From a bacterium (GTDB lineage: Bacteria > Patescibacteriota > Dojkabacteria > JAKAPS01 > JAJZLI01), in contig JAKAWT010000001.1 in the NCBI GenBank assembly GCA_021816845.1, forward strand, positions 262,087-326,086: a stretch of 64,000 nt of DNA, read 5' to 3'. This document shows positions 2,240 through 64,000 of this stretch, piece by piece. Numbering within the stretch: position 1 is the first letter of the stretch; every line of letters starts with the position of its first letter. Below the pieces are notes generated by a model, which was not told the origin of the DNA, ran no database searches, and worked only from the letters and a program-made list of their open reading frames with translations. A program made the translations under genes and the position numbers.

Positions 2240-2246
2240 AAATAAT

Positions 2247-2849: not shown

Positions 2850-3213
2850 TGAATTGAGACCTTTTTATTCCTAAGAATTTTGATTCTTGAAGCCTTACTT
2901 CTGGAAGCTCTGCTTCTTGGAGTTCTACTTCAAAGATATTGTATGAGAAAATATATTTTTTATCTTTGAATAAATATTTAATAGAATCCAAAATTAAGAT
3001 ATATGTAGGTCTCCCTCTATAATTTTGTTTTATCAAAAAATAGAAGATAGCTATAATAGAAGATCCTAAAAATATTTTTATATGTATATCAAGTGAAGAT
3101 ACTACCAAAAAAAGAATCGGGGGTGCTGAAAATAATACAACAAAAATATCTGAGGTTAGAGAGAAATAATTATTCCTTAAACTTTTGATTTTATAAACTT
3201 TTACTTTGTCCAT
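2833..3213 (-). CDS. VirB3-like small two-TM membrane protein
   Basis: 126 aa with two hydrophobic helices, sitting upstream of VirB4 as in VirB3/PrgI-type proteins. It resembles the N-terminal 110 aa of 9912..11819. Confidence 0.4.
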   Translation of the reverse strand: MDKVKVYKIKSLRNNYFSLTSDIFVVLFSAPPILFLVVSSLDIHIKIFLGSSIIAIFYFLIKQNYRGRPTYILILDSIKYLFKDKKYIFSYNIFEVELQEAELPEVRLQESKFLGIKRSQFNEKNK

Positions 3214-4133
3214 TATATTATAGATTTAATTTTGGATGATAGAGAAAATATTCTTTCATTTATGACACCACCAAGAAGTTGAGGAATCAAAGAGAGAGAA
3301 AATAGAACTATAATTCCAAGTATCAATCTTTCTAAATTTCCTATGTAATAATTATTAACTATTACTACAAATACAGAAATACCAATTAAGAATGCCGGCT
3401 GGATAAATAAAAGCTGCACTATTTTAGAGAAAGCATTAGGCAATAAATCTCCCATTGGAGGATATATAGATATAACAATAAAAAGAGGAAATAGGAGAAT
3501 TAGAATCCAAAGCATAATAAATCTTATTATAAACTGCAAAGAGAATATGAACAGCGCTATAATAAGAAGTATGTATAATACTATTGAGACAATTCCAGAA
3601 AATATTCCTATTTGAAGTGATGAAGCCCCCATCGTGTTTACAATAGTTGAGAATAAACTTGAACTTCCTCCTATCATATGTACGACTATAAATTGATCTA
3701 CAACATTTATAAATGTTATGAAAAAAGACAAGAAATATATAGATGTAAAAAGAAATATTACTGAAATAAAAAGACTACCTAATAAATCAGATGGAGATAA
3801 ATTGGTTTTACCAACCGTTGCTTCTCCAATTAAATGTATAACATAAACAAGAATTATTACTGGTATAATTGAAATTGCAAGATATTGGGTCCCATTTCTA
3901 TAGTTAGAAATAGCAGCACCTTCAAAATCACCTCCTCCTGGTTTTAGAATGTTGGGTGTATATTCTGTGAACTGATCTATTATATACCCTAGAGAACATA
4001 CTACTCCTTCAAAAGAATATGTAGTTTGAGACGAGCATCCTGACCCTGTACTTTGATTTTGAGCAAATATAGGGGATGCTAGCAGAAAAAGCAGTAATGA
4101 ACTAATAAAAAGTCCCCGAATTAACAACCCCAT
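3213..4133 (-). CDS. Secreted polytopic membrane protein, VirB6/TrbL-like (paralog of 52025..53635)
   Basis: Signal peptide ending …SPIFAQ, then a Ser/Thr/Gly-rich segment with two Cys (GSGCSS…VVCSLGY), then at least 6 TM helices. This architecture is shared with 52025..53635 (…VFAQTTTTSSS…CAPANG…CGF). Confidence 0.45.
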   Translation of the reverse strand: MGLLIRGLFISSLLLFLLASPIFAQNQSTGSGCSSQTTYSFEGVVCSLGYIIDQFTEYTPNILKPGGGDFEGAAISNYRNGTQYLAISIIPVIILVYVIHLIGEATVGKTNLSPSDLLGSLFISVIFLFTSIYFLSFFITFINVVDQFIVVHMIGGSSSLFSTIVNTMGASSLQIGIFSGIVSIVLYILLIIALFIFSLQFIIRFIMLWILILLFPLFIVISIYPPMGDLLPNAFSKIVQLLFIQPAFLIGISVFVVIVNNYYIGNLERLILGIIVLFSLSLIPQLLGGVINERIFSLSSKIKSII

Positions 4134-4353
4134 TTATAAATGTAGTTAAACTAGTAGCACTAAGTACAATAAAAAGACCTATCATTATCCAGACTATTCT
4201 CTTTACAAGTTTAGATCTCTCTTGTGGATTATCTGCATTTAAAATAAATTGAATCCCTAATATTATTATAATTATTAGTAATACTGTCTCCACTGTAGTT
4301 ACTAATAAGGAAGCTATATTTGAAACAAATTGTGACAATCCTGGTATTTGCAT
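4102..4353 (-). CDS. VirB2/TrbC pilin-like small hydrophobic protein
   Basis: 83 aa with two hydrophobic helices separated by a short polar loop. It is the first gene of the minus-strand operon, which is where VirB2 usually sits. Confidence 0.35.
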   Translation of the reverse strand: MQIPGLSQFVSNIASLLVTTVETVLLIIIIILGIQFILNADNPQERSKLVKRIVWIMIGLFIVLSATSLTTFINGVVNSGTFY

Positions 4354-9196: not shown

Positions 9197-9224
9197 ATTT
9201 TTAAAATTAGTCTTTTTTAATTCA

Positions 9225-9908
9225 TTATTTTGATCCAGAAACTATTGGACCTGTATATTCATCAAAGTCACCTCTAATTTTAGCATTCATAGGATTATAT
9301 ATGCTATAGAAAAGTTTTATTAAATCTGCACTCTCAAGTTGCCTAGATCTTAATCCCATTCTAGAGAGTTGCTTGATTATGTGATCCCTCCTTGGATAAA
9401 GCCTGATTTTTGCAGCCTCAACCAACTTAGTAGTATCTCCAAGTTTAGCTTGTTTACCAAAGAACTGTTTAATAAAAGAAGGTTTCTTAGGCATTGATGC
9501 AAGATATGGAATGACAATATAGAAATGTTTATCTAGAACATTATTTTTCACAATTAAATCCTTAATATTTTTTCTATAAATATCTATTTGGTATTTAATT
9601 TTAGGATCTCTCTGCTTTAATTTATACTCATCAAGATGCTTTAAATATCTTGATATATCAATATTTTCAGTATGTATCATAACTTGGATATAAAAACCGA
9701 GAGAATTTAGTAATCCTGCAAATGCATATATTTTAGATTCCTGCTCAATCTCAGATAAAAGATAGAAATTTACAGCAGAAGTCTCAATGACTATACATAC
9801 ATTTCCATTCTTTAGAATAAGAAGATTATCTTTAATATCTTCTATATCAAGATGATCTTGAGTTGTTGCTACTATAGGTACCCTTTTAGGATCAGATAAA
9901 ATTGACAT
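9225..9908 (-). CDS. Conserved T4SS-associated protein upstream of VirB4 (paralog of 2247..2849)
   Basis: Same synteny and sequence similarity as 2247..2849. The C-termini are also related (…LRSRQLESADLIKLFYSI vs …LRAKIVDTRDEIINILSFI). Confidence 0.4.
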   Translation of the reverse strand: MSILSDPKRVPIVATTQDHLDIEDIKDNLLILKNGNVCIVIETSAVNFYLLSEIEQESKIYAFAGLLNSLGFYIQVMIHTENIDISRYLKHLDEYKLKQRDPKIKYQIDIYRKNIKDLIVKNNVLDKHFYIVIPYLASMPKKPSFIKQFFGKQAKLGDTTKLVEAAKIRLYPRRDHIIKQLSRMGLRSRQLESADLIKLFYSIYNPMNAKIRGDFDEYTGPIVSGSK

Positions 9909-9911
9909 AAT

Positions 9912-11819
9912 TTATATTCCACTAATATTTGTTTTTTCCTCCTTTGATACAGGTATGAACATAAAAGGAGGGATTATTTGGCCACTAATTTCTATTGTTG
10001 CAGTATTAAACTTGTATCCTGCTGCATCAACCTCTATTTCATATCTACCTAAAGGTAAAGGTGTTCTTGTGAAAAACTGCCCTAATTGATTAGTTTTTAC
10101 AGCCCTAACAGGTTTTTGGTTTGTATCTTTTACTATAACTATAGCGTTGTTCAGTATTTTATCCTCATCTGTAATAACAACTCCTGCAACAACATTAGCA
10201 ACCTTTGTAAACTCTGGAAGATGATCAATTAATTGCTGTCTAGTAAGGCCTATAGATTGATCTTGATTGGTCTGATCTAAATTACCTGGTGTATTATCAG
10301 ATTTTTTTTCTTCATGTATCAAAGATTGATCCTGTGGTTGACCTTGGGCCTGAGGTCCTTGGGCCTGAGGACCTTGGATCTGAGGTCCTTGGACTGACTC
10401 TTGATCTGATGTCTGCATATTTCCAAAATCCTGTGATTTAGGTGCAGACAAAGTTGGTTCTGTAAATTTTTGCCCATCTTGTTCTGCAGATACAGACTTC
10501 TCTGTAAGCTGAGTTTTCAATCTCTGGTTTTCTTCCTCTAATGCCTGTATCCTTGTTAATATTTTAGCAAGCTCGGCTTCTCTTGACTCACCCTCAGAAT
10601 GAGTTGTTGCAGCAACTGTGGGATCAAGATCCTTGGGATCAAGATCCGTTGGATTAAGATCCTTGGGATTAAGATCCTTGAGATCGGGTTCCTCGGGATC
10701 AAGTTCCGCGGATTTGACTTGAGTATTATTTGATGTATTTGAAGATAGGTCTGTGGAAACAGCTTTAGTATCAATACTTGAAGATACATCTTGTTGCACT
10801 ACATCCGCCTCTTCTTTATTAATGGTAGTTGGCTCTGTAGAAGATGTTACTGTTTGCTCTTGTGGAATCGTTTGAGTAGGTGATGTATTTTCAGTATTAA
10901 TCTGATCGACAATATCTTGAAAAGGATTATCTATCTGCCCAACATTAGAGGTTTCAGGTTTAGCTTGGGTATTTATAAAATCATCTCTAATATTGGGATT
11001 TACAGATGATCTAACTTCTTCTGCTGCAGAGACTGGAGTTATGTTATTTATATTGAAAGGATTGTACTGAGGGATTTTATCTCCATCTTTAGTATCTTCA
11101 CTACCAGTTGAAGTATTGGGTATAGCACCTGGTATGTCAGGACCATTAGATATAGAACCTATCCCTTGAAGATTATCTTTCTGAAGATTACCATCCTGTA
11201 TGGGCATTCCTGATAGAATATTTGGACTTGCAACAAAAGGGTCACTCGCTACATGCATTGTAGACCCCTGATTAAACAAATCAGTTCCTAGATTTGAAGG
11301 TGGCGTAGACCCACTAGTAGATCCATTAGATATCATACTATTTATCTTATCAATATTTGCAATTAAAGTCTTCTCCTTTACATCAAGGGCGTTATCTACT
11401 GCATCTTCATTAACTGAATTTAGTGAATTATCAAAAGGAGATTGGTATAGAAACATAGAAACATCTTTTTTATTGTTATTTTTATTAACCATAGGCCTAT
11501 CAATCTTCAAAATATTGGGTATAACTTCATTTTTCTTCCAAACCCTTTGGGTAGGATTTTTTATTGCAACTATAAAATTTGTAATCCACTCATCTAGAGG
11601 TCTATCATCAATAGGAACAAAAGCTATTGCCAAAGCTAAAAGAACAAATATTGCAGTAAATGGAACAGTTATGTAGTTACTTATTTTTACAACATACATT
11701 ATAAATCCAATCAACAAAGGTGTTGCAATTATAAGGAATTGCCTCATAGACATATTCCCTATAAGTTTAAACTGAATACTCATTATATTTTGAGGAATTG
11801 AATGCTGTTTCTCGTTCAT
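9912..11819 (-). CDS. VirB3-like N-terminal membrane module fused to a long disordered region, a coiled coil and a C-terminal transthyretin/CarboxypepD_reg-like beta-sandwich
   Basis: The N-terminal two TM helices resemble 2833..3213. The low-complexity region includes a (KDLNP)x6 array and GPQAQ repeats. A coiled coil (…AELAKILTRIQALEEENQRLKTQLTEK…) is followed by the C-terminal …VVAGVVITDEDKILNNAIVIVKD…GRYEIEVDAAGYK…. Confidence 0.45.
   Translation of the reverse strand: MNEKQHSIPQNIMSIQFKLIGNMSMRQFLIIATPLLIGFIMYVVKISNYITVPFTAIFVLLALAIAFVPIDDRPLDEWITNFIVAIKNPTQRVWKKNEVIPNILKIDRPMVNKNNNKKDVSMFLYQSPFDNSLNSVNEDAVDNALDVKEKTLIANIDKINSMISNGSTSGSTPPSNLGTDLFNQGSTMHVASDPFVASPNILSGMPIQDGNLQKDNLQGIGSISNGPDIPGAIPNTSTGSEDTKDGDKIPQYNPFNINNITPVSAAEEVRSSVNPNIRDDFINTQAKPETSNVGQIDNPFQDIVDQINTENTSPTQTIPQEQTVTSSTEPTTINKEEADVVQQDVSSSIDTKAVSTDLSSNTSNNTQVKSAELDPEEPDLKDLNPKDLNPTDLDPKDLDPTVAATTHSEGESREAELAKILTRIQALEEENQRLKTQLTEKSVSAEQDGQKFTEPTLSAPKSQDFGNMQTSDQESVQGPQIQGPQAQGPQAQGQPQDQSLIHEEKKSDNTPGNLDQTNQDQSIGLTRQQLIDHLPEFTKVANVVAGVVITDEDKILNNAIVIVKDTNQKPVRAVKTNQLGQFFTRTPLPLGRYEIEVDAAGYKFNTATIEISGQIIPPFMFIPVSKEEKTNISGI
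10621..10710. repeat. 15-bp tandem repeat x6 (GGATCAAGATCCTTG family) encoding KDLNP/KDLDP pentapeptides inside 9912..11819
   Basis: Direct reading gives ggatcaagatccttg / ggatcaagatccgtt / ggattaagatccttg / ggattaagatccttg / agatcgggttcctcg / ggatcaagttccgcg. This is the same unit family as the GGATCTAGATCC repeats at 1367, 2525 and 40458. Confidence 0.8.
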
Positions 11820-12473: not shown

Positions 12474-12479
12474 ATTTAT

Positions 12480-13148: not shown

Positions 13149-13214
13149 TTAGGATACATTGTTTTTTACCCAAATTATATATAATATAATAAAGTATCTA
13201 AGATCAAATATTAT

Positions 13215-14081: not shown

Positions 14082-14092
14082 ATAATAAAGAT

Positions 14093-15529: not shown

Positions 15530-15566
15530 TTATAAAATATAAATATACAAGTATGAACATACAATT

Positions 15567-52024: not shown

Positions 52025-53635
52025 GTGATAAGATATTATGTTTACATACTATATTTTTTAAATATGCAGTTTATAAAAAGACATACAGTATTACCCTTCA
52101 AAGAAAAAAAATTAAAGACACAAATCTTGTTGTTAAAAACGAGAATTTTTATAAAACACCTAATTTCGTATAAAAGGGATTTGATTGATCTTATAGAGAG
52201 AACTACGAATGCAAACTTAAAACAAAGAAGTTCAATAAATATAAAGAATGTTTTTGCATTATTAGTAGTTTTTGGAGTTTTATCTGGAGGCTACGTCTTT
52301 GCTCAGACAACAACTACTTCTTCCTCTACAACTTTGGATAAGTGTGCTCCTGCCAATGGATCAGGACTTGCAACTTGGAATTCTTGTGGTTTCACTCCAT
52401 CTATTTTTCAATCAGGTGCGATTGCTATACTTGGTAATTATACGCAATATTCTAACTCTACAGCCCAGAATTTTAAATATACAGGGGGTTATGGGGCAAT
52501 GGGAGAAATGACTTCTTTGATGGGAACTATGTATGCAGCACAGCCTGAATCTGGAGTTGGGTATTTTGCATATTTAGGAGAGAAAGCTGGTTTTATAAAT
52601 CCTACTTATGCTGCAACAACATCAAATTCTGGTGGCCCAATTTATGGATTCTCTTTCCTCTCTCCAATTGAACCTCTGTGGGCATTAACTAGAAACGTAG
52701 CATATTTCCTGTTAATTTTAATAATAATAATGACAGGAATTATGATAATAATAGGAGGAAAGATTGGAGGCCAAATACCAATAACCTTTATGTCTGCATT
52801 ACCAAATATTGTTGCTGCAGTAATACTAATTGAATTCTCTTATGCATTGGCGGGATTTATGATAGATTTAATGAATATTCTACTTTCTTTTGTATTTTTC
52901 ACATTTAATTATCTTGGACCTAATTTAGGAGGAAAAAGTTTTTCTTCAGCTTTTTCTAGTAAAATGTATGTATTTTCAGTCTTTGGTACAGAACAGAGTC
53001 AGATACAAAAAGCCTTAGAAAATTCACAACCACTTGTTAATTCTATTACTGCAAATAGTAATAATGTATATGTGAAATTACTTGGGATGTTAGGGAATCT
53101 TATAAGTAATCATCAGTTATCTGGAATTATAGCATTTGTTATTGCTGTAATATTACTTTTCACTGCGATAAAGATCTTTATGAAACTTTTAGCTTCATAT
53201 GTCATACTTATTTTTCTTCCAGTAGCCGCACCGTTTATGTTCTTATTTGGAGCTTTTCCAGGACAGAGTAAATTTTACTGGAAATTTTTTATGGGGATGT
53301 TTAAAGCTCTTATGGCATTTGTTGTTGTCTATGCAATTTTCCTGATAATGTTTTATATAGAAAATGGCAATGGAGGAAACCCTATATCTTTCGGGAACGG
53401 AAATGCTTTACCACTTATTGGGTTTAACAATATTTCTACATCTTCTGCAACTTCAGTAATCTCTGCATTTATAGCTATTGCTCTTTTTGTTCTTATACCA
53501 AAACTTGTTGGCGATGTACAAAATGCTATATCAAGAGACTTTGGAGATTATGGAACAGAACTTAAAAAGAATGTTGCAGGTCCTTGGGCTAGCCTTAGAA
53601 GAGGTGCTAGGAACCTTACAGGGATGGCAAGATAA
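52025..53635 (+). CDS. VirB6/TrbL-like secreted polytopic membrane protein (paralog of 3213..4133); true start probably downstream of the annotated ATG
   Basis: Signal-peptide-like …LLVVFGVLSGGYVFAQ, a Thr/Ser-rich stretch with two Cys, then at least 7 TM helices. The first 70 codons of the ORF (a poly-basic, low-complexity-looking stretch) precede the signal peptide and may be non-coding. Confidence 0.45.
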   Translation: MIRYYVYILYFLNMQFIKRHTVLPFKEKKLKTQILLLKTRIFIKHLISYKRDLIDLIERTTNANLKQRSSINIKNVFALLVVFGVLSGGYVFAQTTTTSSSTTLDKCAPANGSGLATWNSCGFTPSIFQSGAIAILGNYTQYSNSTAQNFKYTGGYGAMGEMTSLMGTMYAAQPESGVGYFAYLGEKAGFINPTYAATTSNSGGPIYGFSFLSPIEPLWALTRNVAYFLLILIIIMTGIMIIIGGKIGGQIPITFMSALPNIVAAVILIEFSYALAGFMIDLMNILLSFVFFTFNYLGPNLGGKSFSSAFSSKMYVFSVFGTEQSQIQKALENSQPLVNSITANSNNVYVKLLGMLGNLISNHQLSGIIAFVIAVILLFTAIKIFMKLLASYVILIFLPVAAPFMFLFGAFPGQSKFYWKFFMGMFKALMAFVVVYAIFLIMFYIENGNGGNPISFGNGNALPLIGFNNISTSSATSVISAFIAIALFVLIPKLVGDVQNAISRDFGDYGTELKKNVAGPWASLRRGARNLTGMAR

Positions 53636-53640
53636 AATAT

Positions 53641-54318
53641 ATGGATTTAAGACAATTTTACTATGACAAATATAAGGATGATTTTTCATTGTATGAGGAA
53701 TTTATAAGGAAATTCTCTTATAGTAGTGATGTAGATAATTTTTTGACCCTTGAGCTTAAAACCTTTGATGAATATTGTGATGACAGAACCCTTCCCCTGT
53801 ATGACTATATGTACTCCTCACTATATGAGCTTTTAAAAACTCCTACAGTCTCAGATTTACAATTTCTTTATAGGGTCATAGACAAAGATTTTATAGAGTT
53901 TTTTTCTTCTCAAAAAGGGAGAGATTTCCTTTTTTATGAAGGACTAAAGAATGAAAAAGGAGAGGAAATTACAATCAGGAAAGATGCTTTGATTGGAGAA
54001 GAAAATTATGAAGATCTGTCTTTCTCTCCTCATATTCTTGATCCAAATTATTTTTATTTCATTGACCACGATGATGATATTAGGGGGATCAAATATTTGA
54101 AGGAAGTGAAAACCCTTTTTATTATAAGGAAGTTTTTAGAATATGGAGGTTCCTTTGCATATCTTAATAATGCAGAGGATAGTCTTTTTATAAAGAAACT
54201 TTGGATTCCTTTATCTGAAGGCATTATAAAAATTTCCGATAAAAACCTTGTAACTTCAAGCATATCATTATATGAAGATATCTTTGATTTTAACTTAGAT
54301 TTAAATATTGAACTTTAA
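53641..54318 (+). CDS. Hypothetical acidic cytoplasmic protein
   Basis: 225 aa, D/E/Y-rich, with no motifs. Its stop overlaps the start of the giant gene (ATGA at 54317-54320). Confidence 0.35.
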   Translation: MDLRQFYYDKYKDDFSLYEEFIRKFSYSSDVDNFLTLELKTFDEYCDDRTLPLYDYMYSSLYELLKTPTVSDLQFLYRVIDKDFIEFFSSQKGRDFLFYEGLKNEKGEEITIRKDALIGEENYEDLSFSPHILDPNYFYFIDHDDDIRGIKYLKEVKTLFIIRKFLEYGGSFAYLNNAEDSLFIKKLWIPLSEGIIKISDKNLVTSSISLYEDIFDFNLDLNIEL

Positions 54319-57300
54319 TGAATGATATACAGAAACTAAAGAATAATCTATATAAATCTTATTGTGATCTTATCTATACAAAAGAAGATTTGGATAGAGA
54401 TTTATCTGTATCTAGGATTGATCTTAGTAGGTATGTTCAAGATTTTATAGATCAAAGAAATTGTGAGTTAAACGGAATTCCATCAGGATTAGTTGGAGAA
54501 GTTCTAGATAAAAAAAGAAATTTTACTTTCAGGGATAAAGTTTTAGAAGGACAATACCGGAGGTATGTTAATGTAGCAGTAGAAGAGAATTTGTATAGAA
54601 GGTTCTCTATCACAAGTTCTAATTCATATAAGAGAGCATATAAAGCTAGAGAGGCAAGACTTCTTGCAAAATCATTAACTCCATCAATAGCTCAATATTT
54701 TCTTCCTGCTCAAGGAGGTAGGTTTTCTGGAACAATCGGAGATATAGATACTGTTAAATTTATGGTTTCTATACTTCAGAGAAAGAAGTATCTAGATGTT
54801 ATAGAAAGACAACTCTACACTTACAGAACTCAAGGTTATATGCCTGCATTAGATGAAAGACTTGAGGTTAGAAAAGTTAATCTTTCACTAAATGCTTTAA
54901 GAAGAAGAGAAGGAGTAGGGGCTCAGATAAAAACTAGAAGAGTATTAGATGTTTGGGAGACAGTCAGTCTAGAAGAAGTGTATTCTCTAATAAGAGGGCT
55001 ATCAAAAGATGAGGCTATAAAGGAAATTACAAGGAGATATCAATACCCTATTGCCGTTGCAGAGGCAGTTTATTCTAGAGTTATTGAAAAAACTACAGCA
55101 GTTGACATTCTTGAAGATGATAAAGGTATAGCTAGAATTACTCCAATTGTTAATGATGGGAACTTCCATGCTAGATATTTTTTCCAATATATCCTTAATG
55201 ACAATAAAAAAAGGAATAATAGAAAAATATTTTCTATTCCTAAAACATGGATAATGGGTAGAGAGGTGGGGGTTCTAGTTGGGCTCGGATTTTTCTCTAA
55301 AAATCCTGAAGTAAATCAATATTCTAGATTTATAGATAAAAATCCATTTCTAAAAAGAATAACAGAGTATGATAAAGAACAGTATTATGAATCCATAAGA
55401 AGTTTTTTTTCTCCTACTGAAACATCTAGGGTTGTTGGTTCTAAATATTCTCAAGGGCTATATGTTAGAAACACAAATAGATTCCTTTTTAACCAAAAAA
55501 GGGGAGGCTTACGATATGAAGACTACAGCAAGGATTTTAAAGACCAAACTGCAGGAGAAAATATAGAGTATGCATTGAACGAAAAAAAAGAACGAGGATT
55601 GTTGTTTTTTAAAAAACCTACAACAATAAGACAAGGGTATGAAGTCCTAGACACCAGATCATCTTTATGGACTCGCTATAGATACAAGAAAAGGAGGATT
55701 TTAAAAATTCTAGATTTTATAGCTGCAATTCCTGCACTTATATCTTTGTCTGTAGGGTTTATAGAGACAAGGCTTATAAATATTGCAGATAGAGCTTTCT
55801 TGGGAGGTAGGCTAACAAAAGCTTTTATTGGCCATATTGAAGGAGGAACGCTAACAGATAAGTTAATGCTCTCTTTTGATGGTATAAGATTCTCTTTTAA
55901 TGCCTTTAAATTAATTATAAAAGATGGTGCTGAAATAGCAGTCCCTGCATTGTTAGTAGGTATTTTATCAGGATCTCTTCCAGTGGCTTTGGCTGTAGGG
56001 ATACCTTTCTTCGGACTTAAATTCCTTAAAGATTTCCTTCCTATGTTTGATGCACAAAATCCTCTAACAGTAGATATCATTAAAAAGATAGTAGGCGGCA
56101 TGACACAAGAAGCTCTTTCTGGCAGTGAAATTATGCTCAAATCTTCTATATTTGGTTTAGAAGCTGGTGCACTTTCAATCCCACTAGCACTTTTGTTTGG
56201 AGCTTCTGCACCATTAGTTTTTATGGGTGCATTTGCTGCTGCTACAGGATATAGAGCTGTAAGTACATTATTTGCAGGAAGATTTATTCCTTCTTATCTT
56301 GAAGCTTCAAAGCTGGACGCATCCTTATTTGATATTTTAAGATATAAGTCCCAATACTTGGGGGAGTTTGGTACAGGGGGTTTTATTACAGGAGGTCTAT
56401 TAACTTTAGCTTTTGGAGGTAATCCAGCATTTGTACTTGCATTTACTGGTGCTGGATTACTTAGTGGTTCTGTTGCAGATTTTTTTAAGAATGCCATATT
56501 TGAAGAATCTATAGTTCATACTACACCTACAGCTACAATACTTTCAGATACCACCCATGTAGCAGTTGGATTTGGAGCAGGTCTTGGTATTATTGGTTTT
56601 GCATTTTTTGGGGTACCGGGAGCCATAGTACTTGGAGGTGCAGGAGCAGCATTAAGTGTTGTTACAACAATAATTCAAAGGAGAGTTACATCTATAACAG
56701 TTGGTAAGCTAGATCCTACAATATTATCTCATATATCAAGATTGTCTCCAGAGGATATAAGGGATTTAGTTACAGCTTCCTCTTCCATAGAAGATATGAG
56801 AACTATCCTTCTAAAAGCTGGATTGTCAGCAGATATTGTAAGTAGATTTTTATCAAGTAGAGCCTTTCTTGAAGATATTAGAGATATAAGTGAATCTATA
56901 AGATCAAATCTTTCGCTACAAGAGAATTATGTAAAAGATCTACTTAAGGGGACTCTGGAAAGAGATCTTTTTTCAAGGCAGCTCTTATTAGGAGATATAG
57001 CAAAAAATTTTAGAAATTTTTATGACATAAGAGATCTAAATTCCTTAGAAGAAATACGGCATCTATCTATAAATGATTTTGCGACAAGGTTTGGTTTAGA
57101 TCCGGACACTGCAGGGAGATTATTACGTAGTGATGGTTTTATTAGAGCGTTAGATAGTGAGGATATAGTTCAAGTTAGAAACAGCATAGAGAGTGCTCTA
57201 AGAGGTAGTTTAAGAGAAAGATTTTCATTGTCACAAGGGGATATAGATAAATTATTCAAAGAATCTAATTCTGGGATAATTAAGAGTCTACGTCCAATAA

Positions 57301-59033
57301 ATTTAGAATTAAGATCATATTTAAAAATATCAGAATACCTTAGAGAAGGAAGAGCTCTTGATTTTGTAGGAAGGGGTGAACTAGCAAAATTATTAAATGT
57401 GGATGAAGTAAATCTTGCTGAGCACTTAAGGACTGTATATCAAATTAATATAGAGACCGTTAAATATTCAGAATTAAGAGATATTCTACTGAGAGATAAT
57501 ATTAATATTGTATCTGCTTTAAGTGAAAGAAGTGAATTTTTTAGAGTCCTCGAAGGAACAAAACTAACAATGGGAGAACTTTTTGGGAAGTATGTGGAAT
57601 TTCCTGATAATCTTCCAGATTTATTGAGTATGAATTTTTCTGAATACTTAAAAGTTATTAGTGACCCAACATCTGTTTTTGCTGCTTCTTGGGGATGGGA
57701 AGATCTATTAGGGAAGGCACAAGGTGATTTCTTAGCAAGCCCAGAACTAAAGGCAATAATAGGTGATAAGATAAAAGAATTACCTTTCTCTTTGGGAAAA
57801 CTAGCAGAATTTGGTAGAAATTTCCATCTTGGACATTTAAATTTTGCAGGAATTGAAAGTGTTGGAATGACAGGTTTGTGGACTGGGATAACAGTTGCAA
57901 TACTAGGAGTCCCAATTTTACCAGCAATAGCAATAACAGGTACTGCTGTTTTAGCAAAGGGGTTGATTAGTGAATGGGTGGCAGCAAATCCTTTGAATAA
58001 GGCAGATATTCTCGCAGGAAGATTAACAACAATTGATCAATATAAATTATTTGCAAAATCTTTGGAAGGATCACTAAATGTTGGAATAATAGGATTTTTA
58101 GTAGGAACAGTTATAGGAGGGCCTTTGGTTGGTACCTTAATAGGTGGAGGTTCTATGATTGGTCTTATGACCTACAAATATTTAAGGGGACCAGAAGCTG
58201 CAATTGCTGAGGCAACAAAAGGCTTTGGAGCAGTTGTTATGAAAGCTGGGAATGAAAGTTTAAATGTTGTAATGTCATTTAGTCTTGTAGATCAATTATT
58301 CCATCTTAAATCTTTTATACCAAGTCTATTGTTTCAAAATGGAATATTGTCTGCACTTGGAGCTTGGGCAACGGTTGGATTTGGCATTGCAGGATTTGCA
58401 GCTATAGGAGGAGCCATAATAACATTTGTAGTAGGTGCAGCAGCAGTAGCATTTTTTCCTGCAGTTCTTATAGGAGCAGCCGTTGTTGTAACCGCTGATG
58501 TTGCAACAAGAATCTTTTCCTGGCTTATCACGGGAACTTCGCATGGACTTCTTTTTTATGTTGGTGCTGGATTAAAAGACGTAGCAGGATTTTTCCTAGG
58601 AGCTGCAGGTTCAACATTAGCATCTTTAGGTATTGACATAATAATAGGACTTATATTCTTACTTTCGAGATTTGATTTTGATATAGATGATTTTCTAAAA
58701 ACTATTTTTATAATGGTATTCTCTTGGTCACTTATAGCAGGAGGAGTATTTGGATCAGGAGTATTTTCAGGTTCTAGTAATAATAATATTTCTAATGTTG
58801 CTGTATCAAATAATAGTACTCCCGCTTCTGGTATATCATCAAATATGATAATCTCTCCTGTGAAGGGTAAGATATTTAAGATATCCCAGTCAGGGTCTGT
58901 TATAGTCTCAGATACGGTATACATAAAAACGGAAAATGGAGATATTATAGGTGTAAAAAATGTAAACAACCCATATTTATATAGTGGAGAAACAATTACA
59001 AAAGGCCAATTTATAGGGAACTTATCACAATGA
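54318..59033 (+). CDS. Giant (1571 aa) multi-pass membrane protein with an N-terminal basic cytoplasmic domain, Gly-zipper TM bundles, an internal EDIRD-repeat soluble domain and a C-terminal beta domain
   Basis: Uninterrupted 4.7-kb ORF. Residues 1-460 are K/R-rich and soluble. At least 15 predicted TM helices are rich in GxxxG/AxxxG. Residues 770-1130 carry a soluble region with repeated …EDIRD…/…YDIRD… motifs. Confidence 0.6.
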   Translation: MNDIQKLKNNLYKSYCDLIYTKEDLDRDLSVSRIDLSRYVQDFIDQRNCELNGIPSGLVGEVLDKKRNFTFRDKVLEGQYRRYVNVAVEENLYRRFSITSSNSYKRAYKAREARLLAKSLTPSIAQYFLPAQGGRFSGTIGDIDTVKFMVSILQRKKYLDVIERQLYTYRTQGYMPALDERLEVRKVNLSLNALRRREGVGAQIKTRRVLDVWETVSLEEVYSLIRGLSKDEAIKEITRRYQYPIAVAEAVYSRVIEKTTAVDILEDDKGIARITPIVNDGNFHARYFFQYILNDNKKRNNRKIFSIPKTWIMGREVGVLVGLGFFSKNPEVNQYSRFIDKNPFLKRITEYDKEQYYESIRSFFSPTETSRVVGSKYSQGLYVRNTNRFLFNQKRGGLRYEDYSKDFKDQTAGENIEYALNEKKERGLLFFKKPTTIRQGYEVLDTRSSLWTRYRYKKRRILKILDFIAAIPALISLSVGFIETRLINIADRAFLGGRLTKAFIGHIEGGTLTDKLMLSFDGIRFSFNAFKLIIKDGAEIAVPALLVGILSGSLPVALAVGIPFFGLKFLKDFLPMFDAQNPLTVDIIKKIVGGMTQEALSGSEIMLKSSIFGLEAGALSIPLALLFGASAPLVFMGAFAAATGYRAVSTLFAGRFIPSYLEASKLDASLFDILRYKSQYLGEFGTGGFITGGLLTLAFGGNPAFVLAFTGAGLLSGSVADFFKNAIFEESIVHTTPTATILSDTTHVAVGFGAGLGIIGFAFFGVPGAIVLGGAGAALSVVTTIIQRRVTSITVGKLDPTILSHISRLSPEDIRDLVTASSSIEDMRTILLKAGLSADIVSRFLSSRAFLEDIRDISESIRSNLSLQENYVKDLLKGTLERDLFSRQLLLGDIAKNFRNFYDIRDLNSLEEIRHLSINDFATRFGLDPDTAGRLLRSDGFIRALDSEDIVQVRNSIESALRGSLRERFSLSQGDIDKLFKESNSGIIKSLRPINLELRSYLKISEYLREGRALDFVGRGELAKLLNVDEVNLAEHLRTVYQINIETVKYSELRDILLRDNINIVSALSERSEFFRVLEGTKLTMGELFGKYVEFPDNLPDLLSMNFSEYLKVISDPTSVFAASWGWEDLLGKAQGDFLASPELKAIIGDKIKELPFSLGKLAEFGRNFHLGHLNFAGIESVGMTGLWTGITVAILGVPILPAIAITGTAVLAKGLISEWVAANPLNKADILAGRLTTIDQYKLFAKSLEGSLNVGIIGFLVGTVIGGPLVGTLIGGGSMIGLMTYKYLRGPEAAIAEATKGFGAVVMKAGNESLNVVMSFSLVDQLFHLKSFIPSLLFQNGILSALGAWATVGFGIAGFAAIGGAIITFVVGAAAVAFFPAVLIGAAVVVTADVATRIFSWLITGTSHGLLFYVGAGLKDVAGFFLGAAGSTLASLGIDIIIGLIFLLSRFDFDIDDFLKTIFIMVFSWSLIAGGVFGSGVFSGSSNNNISNVAVSNNSTPASGISSNMIISPVKGKIFKISQSGSVIVSDTVYIKTENGDIIGVKNVNNPYLYSGETITKGQFIGNLSQ

Positions 59034-59878
59034 AGGTATTGAAAATAATAGTACCAATAGTTATATTAATAGGTTTGGTGTATCTATATATAAATTTCCA
59101 TCCCACTCATCCTAATGTGACTGTTGTTAAAACTAAAAGTACTACTATAATACCTAAAGTTTCTTTTTATATAAATACAAATATTAAAATTCAAAAAGCT
59201 AAATCTATTCCTATTATAAATCCAAATAATAATAAGACTTTTTATTATACAAGTTTAAAAAATCCTTATACTGTAGCAACAAATCTTGGTATATCATATC
59301 CTCCCATATTATCAAAAAATGGTCAGATATCATGGACTTCTTCAACTAACTCCCTCATATATTCGAATGGTTCTTTCTTTTATTCTGTAAACTTAGGTTC
59401 TAAAGGGAGCATATCAGAGTATATAAATAATATCTTATCTCAAATAACACCTCAAGGTGTAAGTTATAAGAAGGTTACTAATATAACTCAAAATGAAGTC
59501 ATAGTATATGTCTATCCAAAAATAACTAATCAGTATATATATCTTACTGATGGTAATAAATTTTTTTATACATTTATATTTTATCCAAATGATTCTATAA
59601 AGAGTTTTAATATATACCCACTGACCCTATCTAAGAGAAAAGGCCAATCTTTAAATGTTACAAATCTAGATAATAAAACCCTAAAAAATTTAGGTCTCTA
59701 TGTAGGAGCTCCTGGTGTAATTTCTAATGTCACCATTACTTCTGAAGATTCTGGATATTTCTTCGATCCGCAAAATAAGGTAATTATTCCTGTTTACATA
59801 ATTTATGGGAATGCTGATATAATAAATTTAGGTATTAGAAATTTTACACTTTATGTTCCAGAGGTTAAAACTATATAA
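59030..59878 (+). CDS. Signal-anchored Asn/Ser/Tyr-rich extracytoplasmic protein
   Basis: N-terminal TM (IIVPIVILIGLVYLYI), translationally coupled to the giant gene (ATGA overlap). Confidence 0.4.
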   Translation: MKVLKIIVPIVILIGLVYLYINFHPTHPNVTVVKTKSTTIIPKVSFYINTNIKIQKAKSIPIINPNNNKTFYYTSLKNPYTVATNLGISYPPILSKNGQISWTSSTNSLIYSNGSFFYSVNLGSKGSISEYINNILSQITPQGVSYKKVTNITQNEVIVYVYPKITNQYIYLTDGNKFFYTFIFYPNDSIKSFNIYPLTLSKRKGQSLNVTNLDNKTLKNLGLYVGAPGVISNVTITSEDSGYFFDPQNKVIIPVYIIYGNADIINLGIRNFTLYVPEVKTI

Positions 59879-62216
59879 ATTAATAATACTTTTTTTTACA
59901 ATTTCTATTTTTATAGTAATAGGTAAGAATACTTATGCTGCAAGTAATTCTTGTGGAAATGGAATAACAAATATTCCTCAGCATATGGCAGTATCATGTA
60001 ACACTACACCGTTACAATTTAATGTCCCTGTATCTGTTGTTGCAGGGAGTGGAGGGTATGCAGTGTCTGGGAGTGCAACATTGAATGTGGGGTTTCCTCA
60101 AAATATACCACTATTTCAGTTTTTAGATTCAGTATCTTCAGTTGGTACAGTAGATCAATCTAATTCTTACCTTGATAATCTTTATCAACCATATGGTTAT
60201 TTTGTAGAAAAAACTAATATCAATCCAAATGTAAATTTTAATATACCATCCTCTTCAAATGGGGTTGGTGCCATAGACGTTCCTTCTAGTTGCTCATCCG
60301 TTTCTGGTGTTCAATGTAGCGTTTTATCTACTTCGGGGGCAAGTCAATATGCATATTTTGCTGTTCCTGGTATAGGGAAAGCCGTTGATTTATTTACATT
60401 GGGAAATATGTTCACAATTTCTGGTTCACCATATACTCAAAGTTTAAACAACCTTTCATCACCTTTTATATCAAGTACCCCACAAAATCCAGTTGGTACA
60501 TGCACTGGTAGTTCTAATGGGTGTATAAACAATGAGATGCCTTTGGCATACAAATTAACAACTACATATGGAAACAATCCATACAATCCTGCCGATAACG
60601 CTCCATTGACTACGCTTGCAACCGCTGGGGTAACAGTATTTGATTGGTTTGGTCAATTGTTAACATGTAATTTTATTCTACAATATGGGTGTCAGTTTAC
60701 ATCTTCTGGGATACCACCATACTGCAGTAAGTATATATACCAAGTAAATCAATCTAGTCCAATAACTACGTCAAACCTTCCTTACTGTCCAGTAACAGGG
60801 TTTAGCATTAATGTGTCCTTTTCTTGTCAACAATATGTTGGTCCTGTAACAACTTTAGAATCGGAGTTAAATTCTACTAATCCTCAAGATACACAGCGAA
60901 TAAAGACTCTAGAAAGTGAACTTGCTTCTGCAGAAGCAGCACTCAATTCTTGTATGAATACATTACAAGGATTCCTCCAAAATGGAATCCCAGTTAGTTT
61001 TAATACAAATTTGTATTTGCAGGGACTAAATAGAATTCTTGCAGATGAATGGTATGCAGAAGCTTCATTAGATGGAGGACCTGCTATAGGACATACAAAT
61101 ACTAAGGCTTGGGATCAATATGTAAATCCATACACAGATGAGTTGTATCCTGCTTATCAGAAGATTTTAGATCAAGGCCCTTCTAATCCTCAATATGCCT
61201 CTTTAACAAACTTATTATTTTTGGGCATAGGAGAAAATGTCCCGGTTAGTATATCAGTGACATCTTCCAGTGGCAGTACAGGAACTTCGACTACTACTTT
61301 CCCTGTATCAAATTTTTATTTTCCATGGATAGGAGATGCACTACAGATTCAGCAGAATTTAGCCATACATAATTTTCAGCCATACTTTAATAATGGGAAT
61401 ACCAATAATCTGCCTAAATTAGCCCAGGGAGAATATTACATACAAAACAAATCACAATATCCAGATCCTCTTCTGCTTTATCTCTTATATGTAGGAGCAT
61501 TGTCACCAACTGATCCTGTAGTACAAAATGCACTTGGATCTTATCCAATAAGTACTATTTTACAAAGTTCAACAGGAGGTGGTTCCGGAGGTGGTTATGG
61601 AGGTGGTCCAACGAATACTTCTGGTAAATATAACCAACAAGCATGTGATCTTGCGTTGACTATGGCACGTCCATCAACGATAAGTTTGTCTTTATCAAAA
61701 TTATTACAGTATGCAAATGATTTTCTTGGTGCTAATTACTCTGAGAATAGAGATTTTTCTAGGTGCTATCCTAATGCTGCTCCGGGTGTATACCCAGGGA
61801 TTGATTGTTCTTCTTTTGTTGCGACACTGTATAAAGATATGGGTATTCCTCTTGCTCAAGATTCTACTACTGAAACACAGTATTCATATAGCCAAACGGC
61901 CTTACATATATTTACAAACTTAAATGATGTTGCTGCAGGAGATTTGATATATTTTTATGAGCCGGCAGATGCTCCACAGGCTCCTCCTCAACATGTTGCA
62001 TTAATATCAAGGTGGAATGGTCCTAATAATTTTGATACCATTCAAGCTACTTATCCTGGAAATGGTGTTGTGAATGATAATTATACTAAGAATGTCCCAC
62101 CATTATGCCTCACTCTACCTGGAGGTGCGGTACCTTCTGGGGGTTCATTATCTTCTGGAGGTAATGGTAGTTGTATAATGGGATTTGCTAGTCCTAGTGC
62201 AGGACAATTTAACTAA
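59853..62216 (+). CDS. Secreted 787-aa protein with a C-terminal NlpC/P60 peptidoglycan endopeptidase domain
   Basis: Signal peptide, then a long Ser/Thr/Gly/Pro-rich beta region, a GGGSGGGYGGGP linker, and a C-terminal domain with the catalytic Cys in DCSSFVATLY, His in HVALIS, and a following polar residue. Confidence 0.6.
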   Translation: MFQRLKLYKLIILFFTISIFIVIGKNTYAASNSCGNGITNIPQHMAVSCNTTPLQFNVPVSVVAGSGGYAVSGSATLNVGFPQNIPLFQFLDSVSSVGTVDQSNSYLDNLYQPYGYFVEKTNINPNVNFNIPSSSNGVGAIDVPSSCSSVSGVQCSVLSTSGASQYAYFAVPGIGKAVDLFTLGNMFTISGSPYTQSLNNLSSPFISSTPQNPVGTCTGSSNGCINNEMPLAYKLTTTYGNNPYNPADNAPLTTLATAGVTVFDWFGQLLTCNFILQYGCQFTSSGIPPYCSKYIYQVNQSSPITTSNLPYCPVTGFSINVSFSCQQYVGPVTTLESELNSTNPQDTQRIKTLESELASAEAALNSCMNTLQGFLQNGIPVSFNTNLYLQGLNRILADEWYAEASLDGGPAIGHTNTKAWDQYVNPYTDELYPAYQKILDQGPSNPQYASLTNLLFLGIGENVPVSISVTSSSGSTGTSTTTFPVSNFYFPWIGDALQIQQNLAIHNFQPYFNNGNTNNLPKLAQGEYYIQNKSQYPDPLLLYLLYVGALSPTDPVVQNALGSYPISTILQSSTGGGSGGGYGGGPTNTSGKYNQQACDLALTMARPSTISLSLSKLLQYANDFLGANYSENRDFSRCYPNAAPGVYPGIDCSSFVATLYKDMGIPLAQDSTTETQYSYSQTALHIFTNLNDVAAGDLIYFYEPADAPQAPPQHVALISRWNGPNNFDTIQATYPGNGVVNDNYTKNVPPLCLTLPGGAVPSGGSLSSGGNGSCIMGFASPSAGQFN

Positions 62217-62219
62217 ATT

Positions 62220-62909
62220 ATGAACTTAAGTACACTAACAATATATATACGAAAATACTGGATTCTTATTATAGCTTTACTATTTTTAGTACTGCTATTA
62301 TTTATATTTTTTAATAAATCTACACCTTCATTTAATTTTGATACAAGCATTAATTACCAACAAATAGGTCCAAAGGGTGGGTCATATACACCACTCGGAT
62401 ACCATGTAGATTCTTTCTCTGGCACATCCTTTTATTCTAAAATTCTAAATCAACAAGTTAAGTATTTTAAAATATCTTCTGGCGAGACGATAGGATATTT
62501 TATCAACAAAGGTAACACTCTTAATAAATATGAAAACAATCCTTTATATCTAGGATATGCTCTTTCATATGATATTTTTAATATACCAGTTCCTTCTTTA
62601 GAACAGGGGAATCTAAACTATTATACATTCTTGTTAAATCATTTTGGGTCTATCCCCTCTTATCTAATATCAAAAAATATCTACTCTTATCTTAAATCAA
62701 ATCTTAATAAGTTTTACTCTGCAAATCCTATATTAGAAAAAATCAATATAATTAACTATTCTAAAGGAAATCAGTATAATATACTGTATTCCTATAATCT
62801 ACTTCCTTTGCTGGCTCAAGGTGGGGTGAAGTATTATAATAAAAATATTGATATAATTATCAATAAAAAATCTGGAAGTTGGGATATAACTAGCATAAAA
62901 ATTTTATGA
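62220..62909 (+). CDS. Signal-anchored hypothetical protein
   Basis: N-terminal TM (WILIIALLFLVLLLFIFF), 229 aa. Confidence 0.35.
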   Translation: MNLSTLTIYIRKYWILIIALLFLVLLLFIFFNKSTPSFNFDTSINYQQIGPKGGSYTPLGYHVDSFSGTSFYSKILNQQVKYFKISSGETIGYFINKGNTLNKYENNPLYLGYALSYDIFNIPVPSLEQGNLNYYTFLLNHFGSIPSYLISKNIYSYLKSNLNKFYSANPILEKINIINYSKGNQYNILYSYNLLPLLAQGGVKYYNKNIDIIINKKSGSWDITSIKIL

Positions 62910-63631
62910 GGAAACTAAATCTTTTACTTATTGCTATTTTTATAGACATTATCTTTATAAGTCTTGCCGTTGTTTATGTACATGCGAGCACTTATGAAAT
63001 ACCTCCAGAGAATAGAGGGTACCCTTTAAATTTATATTCTGGTGGTAATTCTGGAGTAGGGACGATATCTGGTGCTCCAATTCCAGTACCAGCTGGTTAT
63101 TGTCCAGAGCCTTTCACTGTGAATGTTCCTCTTATCTCCACTCAAGGGATTCCTTTACAGCAATCAGATTTCACAGCAATGTTTAATTATTTACAGAATT
63201 TTGGAAGTAAGACAGTAGCAAAGGCCAATCAGATTGTAGTAGCTTGTCAGATATCTCCTGGTTTGTACAAATGTGACCCTAGATTTATTGCTGCTATATG
63301 GGGACAAGAAAGTAGTTTTTCTACTGGAGTAGGTGCAGGAGAAAGTTTTAATTGTTTTGGTGGAGAACCTCAATCCTTTGGGCCAGAACTTAATTGTGCA
63401 ATTAATTCATTTCTTTCTTATTACAGAACATTTAATTTGGAAATGCAGTCTCAACAAATAGCTGTTGCTGGAGCAGGAACCTCTGCTGCGTGCAAAACAA
63501 CAGATCTTTTTACCTATATGATGGAAGAATATACTCCCATAAACGGGAGTTTTGGAAACTCATCGACTAGGTACAGCTTACACTTTTTTCTGAGTAAATT
63601 TTTAGGGTCTCAGGCAATTGTTACAGGGTAA
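62906..63631 (+). CDS. Signal-anchored protein with a lytic-transglycosylase (SLT)-like motif; VirB1-like candidate
   Basis: …RFIAAIWGQESSFSTGVGAG… resembles the SLT catalytic E-S motif, and it has four Cys. The assignment is tentative. Confidence 0.4.
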   Translation: MRKLNLLLIAIFIDIIFISLAVVYVHASTYEIPPENRGYPLNLYSGGNSGVGTISGAPIPVPAGYCPEPFTVNVPLISTQGIPLQQSDFTAMFNYLQNFGSKTVAKANQIVVACQISPGLYKCDPRFIAAIWGQESSFSTGVGAGESFNCFGGEPQSFGPELNCAINSFLSYYRTFNLEMQSQQIAVAGAGTSAACKTTDLFTYMMEEYTPINGSFGNSSTRYSLHFFLSKFLGSQAIVTG

Positions 63632-63634
63632 ACT

Positions 63635-64000
63635 ATGAATATTAATTTAACACTAATAAAAAAGAATGCAAGATATATAATACTTATAGTAGGATTAATC
63701 TTAATTATATTTTTAATTTTTATTCTGTCACGACCAAGTAGTTCTAATAAAGTTATTCCTATTGGCGTCCCTATTGTTAATAAGAATAATTTTAATCCTA
63801 AAGCTCTAAATTATAATTCTACGAATTTCAGTATTAAATATGTTCCACAAAATCAAGCCTTTGGTAACTTAAAAGGAAATACAGTTTATATTCATATAAA
63901 GAATATAGATTTTGCAAATCCTTCAGGGGTTATCGCGCAAGAAGATAAATATGTTGCTCAAGCTAAAGCGATACTCCTTAAATATGGAATAAATCCTAAT
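63635..64000 (+). CDS. Signal-anchored hypothetical protein, 3'-truncated by the window edge
   Basis: ATG at 63635 with an open frame to position 64000. N-terminal TM (YIILIVGLILIIFLIFIL). Not present in the ORF track because no stop is reached. Confidence 0.4.
   Translation, partial: MNINLTLIKKNARYIILIVGLILIIFLIFILSRPSSSNKVIPIGVPIVNKNNFNPKALNYNSTNFSIKYVPQNQAFGNLKGNTVYIHIKNIDFANPSGVIAQEDKYVAQAKAILLKYGINPN

Follow-up and report, generated by a model that had tools for sequence, protein, structure and literature searches.

Among the type IV secretion systems (T4SSs) described so far, the one closest to the locus analysed here is that of 'Ca. Southlakia epibionticum' ML1 (SEML1_0006-0019), which is essential and lies beside dnaA (Wang et al. 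2023, PMC10633639). In addition to VirB4, a TrsD-like protein, PrgI and a pilin array, it encodes a protein that combines two lysozyme-like domains with one Cys-proteinase domain (SEML1_0006), a protein of more than 1100 amino acids (aa) with a DD-peptidase/M23-like C-terminal end (SEML1_0007), a large polytopic 998-aa ‘T4SS protein’ with helical repeats (SEML1_0011), an NTF2-like protein (SEML1_0012) and a large polytopic TrbL/VirB6-like protein (SEML1_0013; PMC10633639 and its Table S2). T4SS genes near the replication origin have been reported for the phylum, and VirB6 homologues are scarce or absent in its major classes, which the survey concerned attributes to extreme divergence (Quinonero-Coronel et al. 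2025, PMC12102498). Here we examine a stretch of 64,000 nucleotides of the Patescibacterial contig JAKAWT010000001.1 (the window), and in it an array of eight genes, g1 to g8, that we call module C; the same window holds two further groups of T4SS-type genes, module A (584-4353) and module B (7019..11819, minus strand). We argue that module C probably works with a Patescibacterial T4SS as its membrane/envelope half, a reading to which we assign a probability of roughly 60%, and that it is most likely the known envelope module of the Patescibacterial T4SS in a rearranged form peculiar to its lineage.

A conserved eight-gene operon

The eight genes of module C are co-directional and abut or overlap from position 52064 to the end of the window (Table 1). 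ATGA overlaps are found at the g3/g4 (59030) and g6/g7 (62906) junctions, g4 and g5 overlap by 26 nucleotides (nt), and the remaining intergenic gaps measure 3-5 nt; a third ATGA junction, which an earlier sequence-only reading of this DNA had placed at 54317, is in fact TAATG (54316-54320), with a 1-nt overlap of g2 and g3. The gene order trx-trmD-g1...g8 is preserved in nine related Patescibacterial genomes (loci L001 and L007-L014), a g1 homologue of 52% identity (P0010) sits in the same order, and a scan of species-representative genomes returned eight loci with synteny of module C. Because this synteny is retained across related genomes, the array is not a product of chance, and module C is a real, conserved operon, as the sequence-only reading had supposed from the overlapping plus-strand genes. 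Conservation within it is uneven: orthologues are 51-56% identical to the window for g1, 52-58% for g7 and only 24-40% for g2-g6, g7 being the best-conserved gene of the operon after g1. The true start of g1 is probably the ATG at 52064, because M14, counted from the upstream GTG, is invariant across 15 orthologues of 516-539 aa. The last gene, g8, is cut by the window end; its orthologues are 132-134 aa long and follow g7 in L001, L010 and L012.

A hydrophobicity and charge scan bore out the general character that had been assigned to most of the products beforehand. Thus, g2 is acidic (net charge -19) and devoid of transmembrane (TM) segments, g3 is a giant multi-pass protein with two clusters of hydrophobic segments, and g4, g6, g7 and g8 each possess a single N-terminal hydrophobic anchor.

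g1 as a VirB6-class candidate

In the g1 product an N-terminal anchor is followed by some 125 extracytoplasmic residues, two conserved Cys among them, and then by a helical TM core; the hydrophobicity scan and the long helices of an AlphaFold2 (AF2) model agree that the protein is polytopic, with at least five TM segments and an extracytoplasmic domain. The TM core of the model reaches predicted local distance difference test (pLDDT) values of 80-90. Foldseek, when queried with this model, returned TrwI/VirB6 chains of R388 as its top 7 matches (E values from 1.9e-3, probability up to 1.0), and two different structure-comparison methods placed T4SS VirB6-class proteins first from very large libraries. 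A VirB6-type membrane-core fold is accordingly seen in the model, at a mean pLDDT of 60 and with TM-scores not exceeding 0.41. Among 83 relatives of g1, Pfam TrbL/VirB6 (PF04610) is the commonest family match (3 of 83, best E 2.8e-5), and it is only through these three relatives that the window g1, which itself gives no significant PF04610 match, is linked to the family.

The family to which g1 belongs is large, a full hidden Markov model (HMM) search with a 26-sequence profile having found 7169 clusters at 50% identity at E<=1e-3 and 2795 at E<=1e-30. Distant homologues in L003, L006, L015 and L016 lie in loci that read pilin array, a protein X, the g1-like gene, a protein Y, PrgI, a TraC-like protein and VirB4; in L003, L006 and L015 the pilins are VirB2-like, X measures 650-720 aa, Y is encoded convergently and has 850 aa, and the protein before VirB4 is TraC/TrsD-like, and in L016 and L005 the g1-like gene adjoins a pilin-like gene. 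Context was counted in 80 metagenomic g1-family loci (L017-L096). Of the 39 loci with at least 4 kilobases (kb) of upstream flank, 33 have VirB2-like pilins upstream of the g1-like gene; of the 28 whose downstream flank extends for 8 kb or more, 19 have VirB4 at a distance of 3.5-8 kb on that side; and a T4SS marker (pilin, PrgI or VirB4) is present in all loci having both flanks (22/22). The family as a whole therefore has the context of a T4SS cluster, the window g1 itself being placed about 42 kb from VirB4 and without an adjoining pilin.

On the basis of fold similarity and of the genomic context of its family, g1 is in our view very probably a VirB6-class polytopic subunit of a Patescibacterial T4SS, and the family is a good candidate for the missing, divergent VirB6 of Patescibacteria. 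The VirB6/TrbL-like character proposed by the sequence-only reading is thus upheld by predicted fold and family context, and finds no direct profile match. The same reading had also declared g1 homologous to the polytopic protein of module A (3213..4133), a claim that has to be abandoned: BLASTP gave E 0.63, the family HMM was negative, and hhalign of the 83-member family profile gave a probability of 2.3%. With filters off, the g1 HMM found no second match within the window.

Among L017-L096, L003, L006 and L015 the recurrent layout is pilin array, X, g1-like gene, convergent Y and PrgI-TrsD-VirB4, and 209 pilin open reading frames (ORFs) were counted in 50 of these canonical T4SS loci. Protein X measures 400-700 aa or belongs to a family of about 860-1500 aa, and Y measures 600-1300 aa; both split into several mutually unrecognisable families without Pfam matches. 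Some large X-type proteins terminate in lysozyme-like motifs (e.g. ...CES...GLYQM...) that are not called by Pfam.

The ATPase core: module B or module A

Module B, the presumed ATPase core that g1 and its operon serve, has in the same genome a phylum-type VirB4 accompanied by PrgI/VirB3 and TrsD (Table 1). It is orthologous to the core encoded next to the g1-like genes of L003 and L006, with identities of 57-59% for VirB4, 39-47% for the TrsD-like and 35-42% for the PrgI-like protein. No gene for a polytopic protein, a pilin or a hydrolase adjoins module B, which lies about 42 kb from module C. An apparatus split between modules B and C is the simplest reading because the core of module B matches the g1-linked cores and lacks partners of its own.

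Alternatively, module C could serve module A, or all three loci could form one machine, as the sequence-only reading had suggested in distributing the apparatus over three loci. This would be consistent with the fact that the only VirB2-like pilin of the window belongs to module A, given that g1-family genes elsewhere adjoin such pilins. However, module A has a polytopic protein of its own between the pilin and the VirB3-like gene, the usual position of VirB6, and g1 bears no similarity to it; the module A VirB4 is only 28-30% identical to phylum-type VirB4, as compared with 57-59% for module B; and the sortase fragment and AbiEii toxin gene on its flanks suggest an acquired element. We therefore hold a partnership with module A to be very improbable. 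Module A looks like a separate, compact and self-contained T4SS-like cluster, perhaps an acquired one in view of these flanking genes, and two loci (B and C) plus a second system (A) fit better than three loci of one machine. Of the three-locus proposal, the split between B and C is what survives; module A, in view of the low identity of its VirB4, appears to stand apart.

At 635 aa, the PrgI/VirB3-like protein of module B (9912-11819) exceeds its counterparts in L003 and L006 (255-365 aa) by a long low-complexity linker with short tandem peptide repeats (DLNPKDLNPTDLDPKDLDP; QGPQIQGPQAQGPQAQGQ), which sits before the C-terminal CarboxypepD_reg-like domain. Between modules A and B, 5856-7004 encodes a membrane protein with a C-terminal multi-TM region and a sub-threshold bactofilin-like repeat domain (24.2 bits, gathering score 27.9).

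Two predicted peptidoglycan hydrolases

The product of g5 carries a signal/anchor segment, 17 Cys residues, a Cys-rich N-terminal region of about 600 aa and a C-terminal NlpC/P60 domain. The latter scores 27.8 bits with Pfam NLPC_P60 (PF00877), above the gathering score of 23, and 29.5-34.5 bits in the orthologues of L001, L008 and L013. Its catalytic residues, the Cys of G(I/V)DCS (GIDCSS) and the His of QHVA (QHVAL), are kept in the NlpC/P60-type orthologues. The best match among PDB sequences is the Tn916-like cell-wall hydrolase CTn7-Orf16 (E 1.5e-3), and the PHROG matches are to tail-associated lysin families (best E 5e-8). In L009 (17490-19937) and L010 (17601-19904) a Peptidase_M23-like domain (E 6e-4 and 1.5e-3) takes the place of NlpC/P60, and the first 600 or so residues remain homologous despite this swap. 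By these signatures g5 is a bona fide NlpC/P60 protein, a peptidoglycan endopeptidase whose hydrolase domain can be exchanged. A possible relationship of g5 to the ~787-aa proteins that follow VirB4 in L003 and L006 was considered and rejected, hhalign being negative.

The second protein, g7, is anchored or secreted and has 6 Cys residues. It contains a lytic-transglycosylase-type motif, DPRFIAAIWGQESSFS, which is an MltB-type catalytic motif. The stretch DPRF(I/L)AAIWGQES(S/T)F is invariant, and AAIWGQESSF, with the catalytic Glu in its E-S pair, is shared by six g7 orthologues. Scores with SLT_2 (PF13406) stayed at 11.1-15.5 bits, below the gathering score of 24.3, and cover profile positions 84-107 only; the window protein reached an E value of 0.22, and three of the six orthologues matched with E values no lower than 0.011. 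The g7 HMM also matches the C-terminal domains of large proteins from canonical T4SS loci, namely L036 (E 3.5e-5) and L043 (E 2.6e-4) and, with weaker support, L031, L039 and L060; the L060 protein is encoded directly after VirB4, and Pfam found no SLT domain in those large T4SS-locus proteins having the g7-like motif. We regard g7 as a probable muramidase or transglycosylase candidate.

As to what had been expected of these genes, the secreted NlpC/P60 endopeptidase was recovered as such, with a Pfam score above the gathering threshold, and the description of g7 as SLT-like gains a catalytic motif and is weakened by SLT_2 scores that are sub-threshold throughout. The more general proposal, that the operon supplies peptidoglycan-hydrolase functions, agrees with the NlpC/P60 domain of g5, the MltB-type motif of g7 and the M23-like C-terminus of g3 described below.

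The protein that follows VirB4 in L060 (L060:12488-15328, 946 aa) has its g7-like motif at residues 668-716, and a PHROG endolysin match (E 9e-5) lies further towards its C-terminus.

The giant protein g3

Reading from its N-terminus, g3 comprises a basic domain of about 460 aa, a first TM bundle (~460-790), a fast-evolving helical domain (~800-1180), a second TM bundle (~1180-1485), a Ser/Asn-rich linker and a C-terminal beta domain; a conservation profile across the orthologues singles out TM bundle 1 and the C-terminal end as the best-conserved regions. By the positive-inside rule, its N-terminal and central domains would face the cytoplasm. Neither the whole protein nor a 7-member profile matched anything in Pfam, NCBIfam or the PDB sequences, and Pfam run on the seven orthologues gave nothing significant, FtsX at E 0.033 being at noise level. 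A word search with g3 found only three close homologues, a metagenome scan with its alignment found none, and no similarity was seen to the neighbour families of canonical T4SS loci. The giant protein had been likened to the extended VirB6 proteins of other systems, a possibility that we reject, as hhalign of g3 with the g1 family gave 0.07%; to judge from these profile comparisons g3 is an orphan and not VirB6-like.

Only its end recalls anything familiar. The C-terminal 95 aa match Pfam Peptidase_M23 (PF01551) at E 0.008 and 16.8 bits, short of the gathering score of 28.7, and PHROG metallo-endopeptidases at E 0.012 and 0.017. The domain has no His, and hence neither HxxxD nor HxH as metal ligands, and its conserved residues include G1517, N1551, P1552, Y1555, G1557 and E1558. 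Because the M23 match is weak and His is absent, we think that this is probably a degenerate LytM-like domain, extracytoplasmic by the positive-inside rule.

Helix-hairpin-helix-like repeats between residues 800 and 1150 of g3 were a visual impression that no profile supports, and we do not claim them. In L009 the g3 orthologue is divided into two ORFs, 12216-14945 (909 aa) and 14946-16658 (570 aa), which may reflect a genuine division of the gene, a frameshift or faulty assembly.

The small genes

For the remaining products, g2, g4, g6 and g8, relatives were detected within the clade only. Orthologues of g2, at 24-33% identity, occupy the place between g1 and g3 in every case; the protein, which has no Pfam or NCBIfam match, is presumably cytoplasmic, and our guess would be an adaptor or chaperone. 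With its N-terminal anchor and ectodomain, g4 is bitopic; its orthologues are 33-39% identical, it matches nothing in Pfam, NCBIfam or PHROG, and it is a candidate structural (VirB8-type) component. Likewise bitopic are g6, for which Pfam and PHROG gave no credible family match, and the small g8. In g4, g6 and g8 alike the anchor was found and the ectodomains had no Pfam match. These three were also considered as paralogues of one another, an idea that was dropped when only their N-terminal anchors were found to align; g6 and g8 share only the N-terminal 'MNL..I' anchor motif.

Genomic neighbourhood

Module C adjoins dnaN (46465-47610) and dnaA (47960-49381), and the sign of the GC skew switches in this region. 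Immediately upstream of trx-trmD-module C lie two type IV pilin/pseudopilin-like genes (49602-50201 and 50292-50882) with an N-terminal GFTLIEILIV motif; the L001 orthologue has the N_methyl Pfam domain, and the pair is retained at this place in relatives. On the other side of dnaN, 41883-44030 is a 715-aa ORF without a Pfam match that adjoins hrcA-grpE-dnaK and is 33-71% identical in related genomes.

Table 1. Positions in the window of the genes and domains of modules C, B and A and of the genes flanking module A.
Feature	Position	Strand	Product or length	Basis or remark
g1	52064..53635	+	523 aa; 536 aa from GTG 52025	ORF list
g2	53641..54318	+	225 aa	ORF list, composition
g3	54318..59033	+	1571 aa	ORF list
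g3 C-terminal 95 aa	58746..59030	+	probable degenerate Peptidase_M23/LytM-like (barrel-sandwich) domain	
g4	59030..59878	+	282 aa	ORF list
g5	59853..62216	+	787 aa	ORF list; NlpC/P60 residues 649-719 (nt 61797-62009)
g6	62220..62909	+	229 aa	ORF list
g7	62906..63631	+	241 aa	ORF list; motif residues 121-144 (nt 63266-63337)
g8	63635..64000	+	at least 122 aa in window	ATG start, cut by window end
Module B	9912-11819	-	PrgI/VirB3-like with CarboxypepD_reg domain	Pfam
Module B	9225-9908	-	TrsD/TraC-like	Pfam
Module B	7019-9196	-	phylum-type VirB4	Pfam
Module A	4102-4353	-	VirB2-like pilin	T4SS_pilin 39.6 bits, TrbC 31.7 bits
Module A	3213-4133	-	polytopic protein, 306 aa	between pilin and VirB3-like gene
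Module A	2833-3213	-	VirB3-like	
Module A	within 584-4353	-	200-aa protein	
Module A	584-2239	-	divergent VirB4-like ATPase	28-30% identical to phylum-type VirB4
Module A flank	195-515		sortase-domain fragment	
Module A flank	5098-5772		AbiEii toxin gene	

Discussion

How far the proposed role of module C in a T4SS can be trusted depends on a number of observations that speak against it. With respect to g1, the TM-scores to TrwI are low (0.25-0.41) for a model of mean pLDDT 60, and spurious structural matches are easily obtained with helical bundles. The window g1 has no Pfam or NCBIfam match at E<=1, VirB6/TrbL included, the profiles of its family match no TrwI or VirB6 chain among PDB sequences, and hhalign of the family with A. 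fabrum VirB6, alone or as a 4-sequence profile, yielded 0.1-0.2%. That ad hoc profile comprises four alphaproteobacterial sequences, A. fabrum and three plasmid homologues, and because it is so thin its negative result is not decisive. As regards g7, no PDB-profile or PHROG match was found, and its AF2 model (pLDDT 36) is unusable for recognizing a lysozyme-like fold. Phmmer, HMM and hhalign searches detected no homologues of g2-g6 and g8 in 85 T4SS-type loci, the window shows no VirB2-like pilin array in the vicinity of module B or C, its lone VirB2-like pilin being that of module A, and the comparison with the eight related genomes is confined to their module C loci.

Perceivably, g1 could thus be unrelated to VirB6, for example a Patescibacteria-specific pilin-assembly platform whose likeness to VirB6 and DotA is superficial. 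The essentially negative sequence-profile tests against VirB6 and the moderate confidence of the model (pLDDT 60) would be in keeping with this, as would the finding that the family is more tightly associated with pilin arrays (33/39) than with VirB4 (19/28). We nevertheless find this doubtful in the face of two structure-comparison methods that rank VirB6-class T4SS proteins first and of Pfam TrbL as the top family among the relatives. Moreover, VirB6 is itself reported to be the pilus-assembly base in R388 (PMC9259494), and for this reason the functional prediction for g1 barely changes whether or not it is a VirB6.

A more far-reaching objection is that g2-g8 form an independent envelope system, devoted to growth or division of the organism's own wall or to host attachment or attack, which does not work with VirB4 and has simply captured, or come to lie downstream of, a relocated VirB6-like gene. 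It is well established that FtsEX-type complexes control wall hydrolases, and a polytopic protein with a degenerate LytM-like domain next to NlpC/P60 hydrolases recalls such control; the sole computed hint of this likeness is the FtsX match of g3, which at E 0.033 is insignificant. The lack of counterparts of g2-g6 and g8 in canonical T4SS loci and the position of the operon beside oriC among the housekeeping genes trx and trmD also favour this view, and no comparison of g2-g8 with the X and Y families that recur next to g1-like genes, by hhalign, phmmer or HMM, reached a probability of 1%. Yet g1 leads a tightly packed, translationally coupled array that is kept in nine genomes, the g7 domain occurs in T4SS-locus proteins too, the operon has no FtsE-like ATPase, an analogous set of parts is found in the Southlakia T4SS, and module B would be left without a channel or hydrolase partner. 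An independent system is, on balance, unlikely, if a contender to be reckoned with, and we continue to favour a T4SS role for the whole operon, which for g2-g6 and g8 is proposed only because they share the operon with g1 and g7 and by compositional analogy.

If the T4SS reading is right, the following course of events can be envisaged. A contiguous ancestral locus for a T4SS of the Patescibacteria type (monoderm, MPF-FATA-derived) would have been split in the lineage of module C, so that the envelope genes became separated by about 42 kb from the PrgI-TrsD-VirB4 core and g1 now heads an operon beside dnaA/dnaN. The g1 product would act as inner-membrane channel and pilus-assembly base for the ATPase of module B, and g5 and g7 would be VirB1 analogues that open the organism's own wall for assembly of the apparatus and possibly also the wall of the host. 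A lineage-specific scaffold with large cytoplasmic domains could be provided by g3, and its catalytically dead, extracytoplasmic LytM-like domain might serve to place the hydrolases or to regulate them, with g4, g6 and g8 as bitopic structural parts and g2 as a cytoplasmic accessory protein. One may go further and conceive of g3 as a new kind of T4SS membrane scaffold in which the two TM bundles connect the large cytoplasmic domains to the dead LytM-like domain outside, and in which the latter controls secreted enzymes of the NlpC/P60 (or M23) and transglycosylase-like types in the manner of FtsX-EnvC/PcsB, and of the g1 family as the missing VirB6 of most Patescibacteria. We put this forward as a long shot; if true, it would mean that wall cutting, be it of the own or of the host wall, is gated by the secretion machine.

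In the only species put to the test, the Patescibacterial T4SS proved essential for growth as an epibiont (PMC10633639), and most parts of these systems other than the ATPases are unannotated. The g1 family, which is unannotated in Pfam, comprises at least 7169 clusters and has T4SS markers at all fully flanked loci, may fill the VirB6 gap, and as a candidate channel subunit it would make T4SSs easier to detect throughout the phylum. The separation of modules B and C implies that surveys of the virB4 neighbourhood (+/-20 genes) will miss envelope components in some lineages. Finally, g5, g7 and g3 with its dead LytM-like domain are testable candidates for wall breaching by an ultrasmall epibiont.

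Comparison with known systems

A dispersed T4SS would not be without precedent. The T4SS of Rickettsiales consists of dispersed gene islands with extended VirB6 paralogues (PMC2653234, PMC7648143), and it shares with the present case both the scattering of genes over several loci and the association with very large membrane proteins. Unlike there, g3 is not VirB6-like, the window holds a single g1-family gene, and the lineage is one of monoderm epibionts and not diderm.

With VirB6/TrbL (TrwI of R388, PDB 7O3V/8RTD; PF04610) and with the Legionella Dot/Icm protein DotA (PDB 9NGY), g1 has in common a VirB6/DotA-like helical membrane core in its predicted structure. It differs from both in that the window protein gives no significant sequence-profile match, its host is monoderm and no VirB5 partner was identified. 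At about 520 aa it is also longer than VirB6 (~300-340 aa), the extra length being made up of the Cys-containing N-terminal ectodomain and a clade-specific cytoplasmic N-terminal extension.

The pair g5 and g7 is reminiscent of the Gram-positive VirB1 analogues of the PrgK, TcpG, CwlT and Tn916 Orf14 types, which likewise bring together an NlpC/P60 or CHAP endopeptidase and a transglycosylase/lysozyme-type activity for a T4SS, and to which the Tn916-like hydrolase that best matches the g5 domain among PDB sequences points as well. In contrast to these, the two presumed activities of module C reside on separate proteins, g7 is not a verified SLT member, and g5 has a unique Cys-rich N-terminal region of 600 aa and, in sister genomes, an M23-like domain in exchange.

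Compared with the T4SSs of Southlakia and of the Patescibacteria clade at large, the window stands out in that its envelope genes are not contiguous with VirB4 but some 42 kb away, that no VirB2-like pilin array adjoins module C, the one pilin of the window being that of module A, and that g2-g6 and g8 bear no detectable sequence relation to the accessory families of the 85 other loci. What it shares with them is a PrgI-TrsD-VirB4 core (module B), a VirB6-like polytopic protein, very large polytopic proteins with helical cytoplasmic domains, hydrolases of both the cysteine-peptidase and the lysozyme type, a giant protein with an M23/DD-peptidase-like end and a position beside dnaA/dnaN. The likeness to Southlakia is one of kinds of parts, compared by description and not by sequence; as module C has the Southlakia-type parts minus the ATPase core and the pilins, it supports by analogy the reading of module C as the envelope half of a Patescibacterial T4SS.

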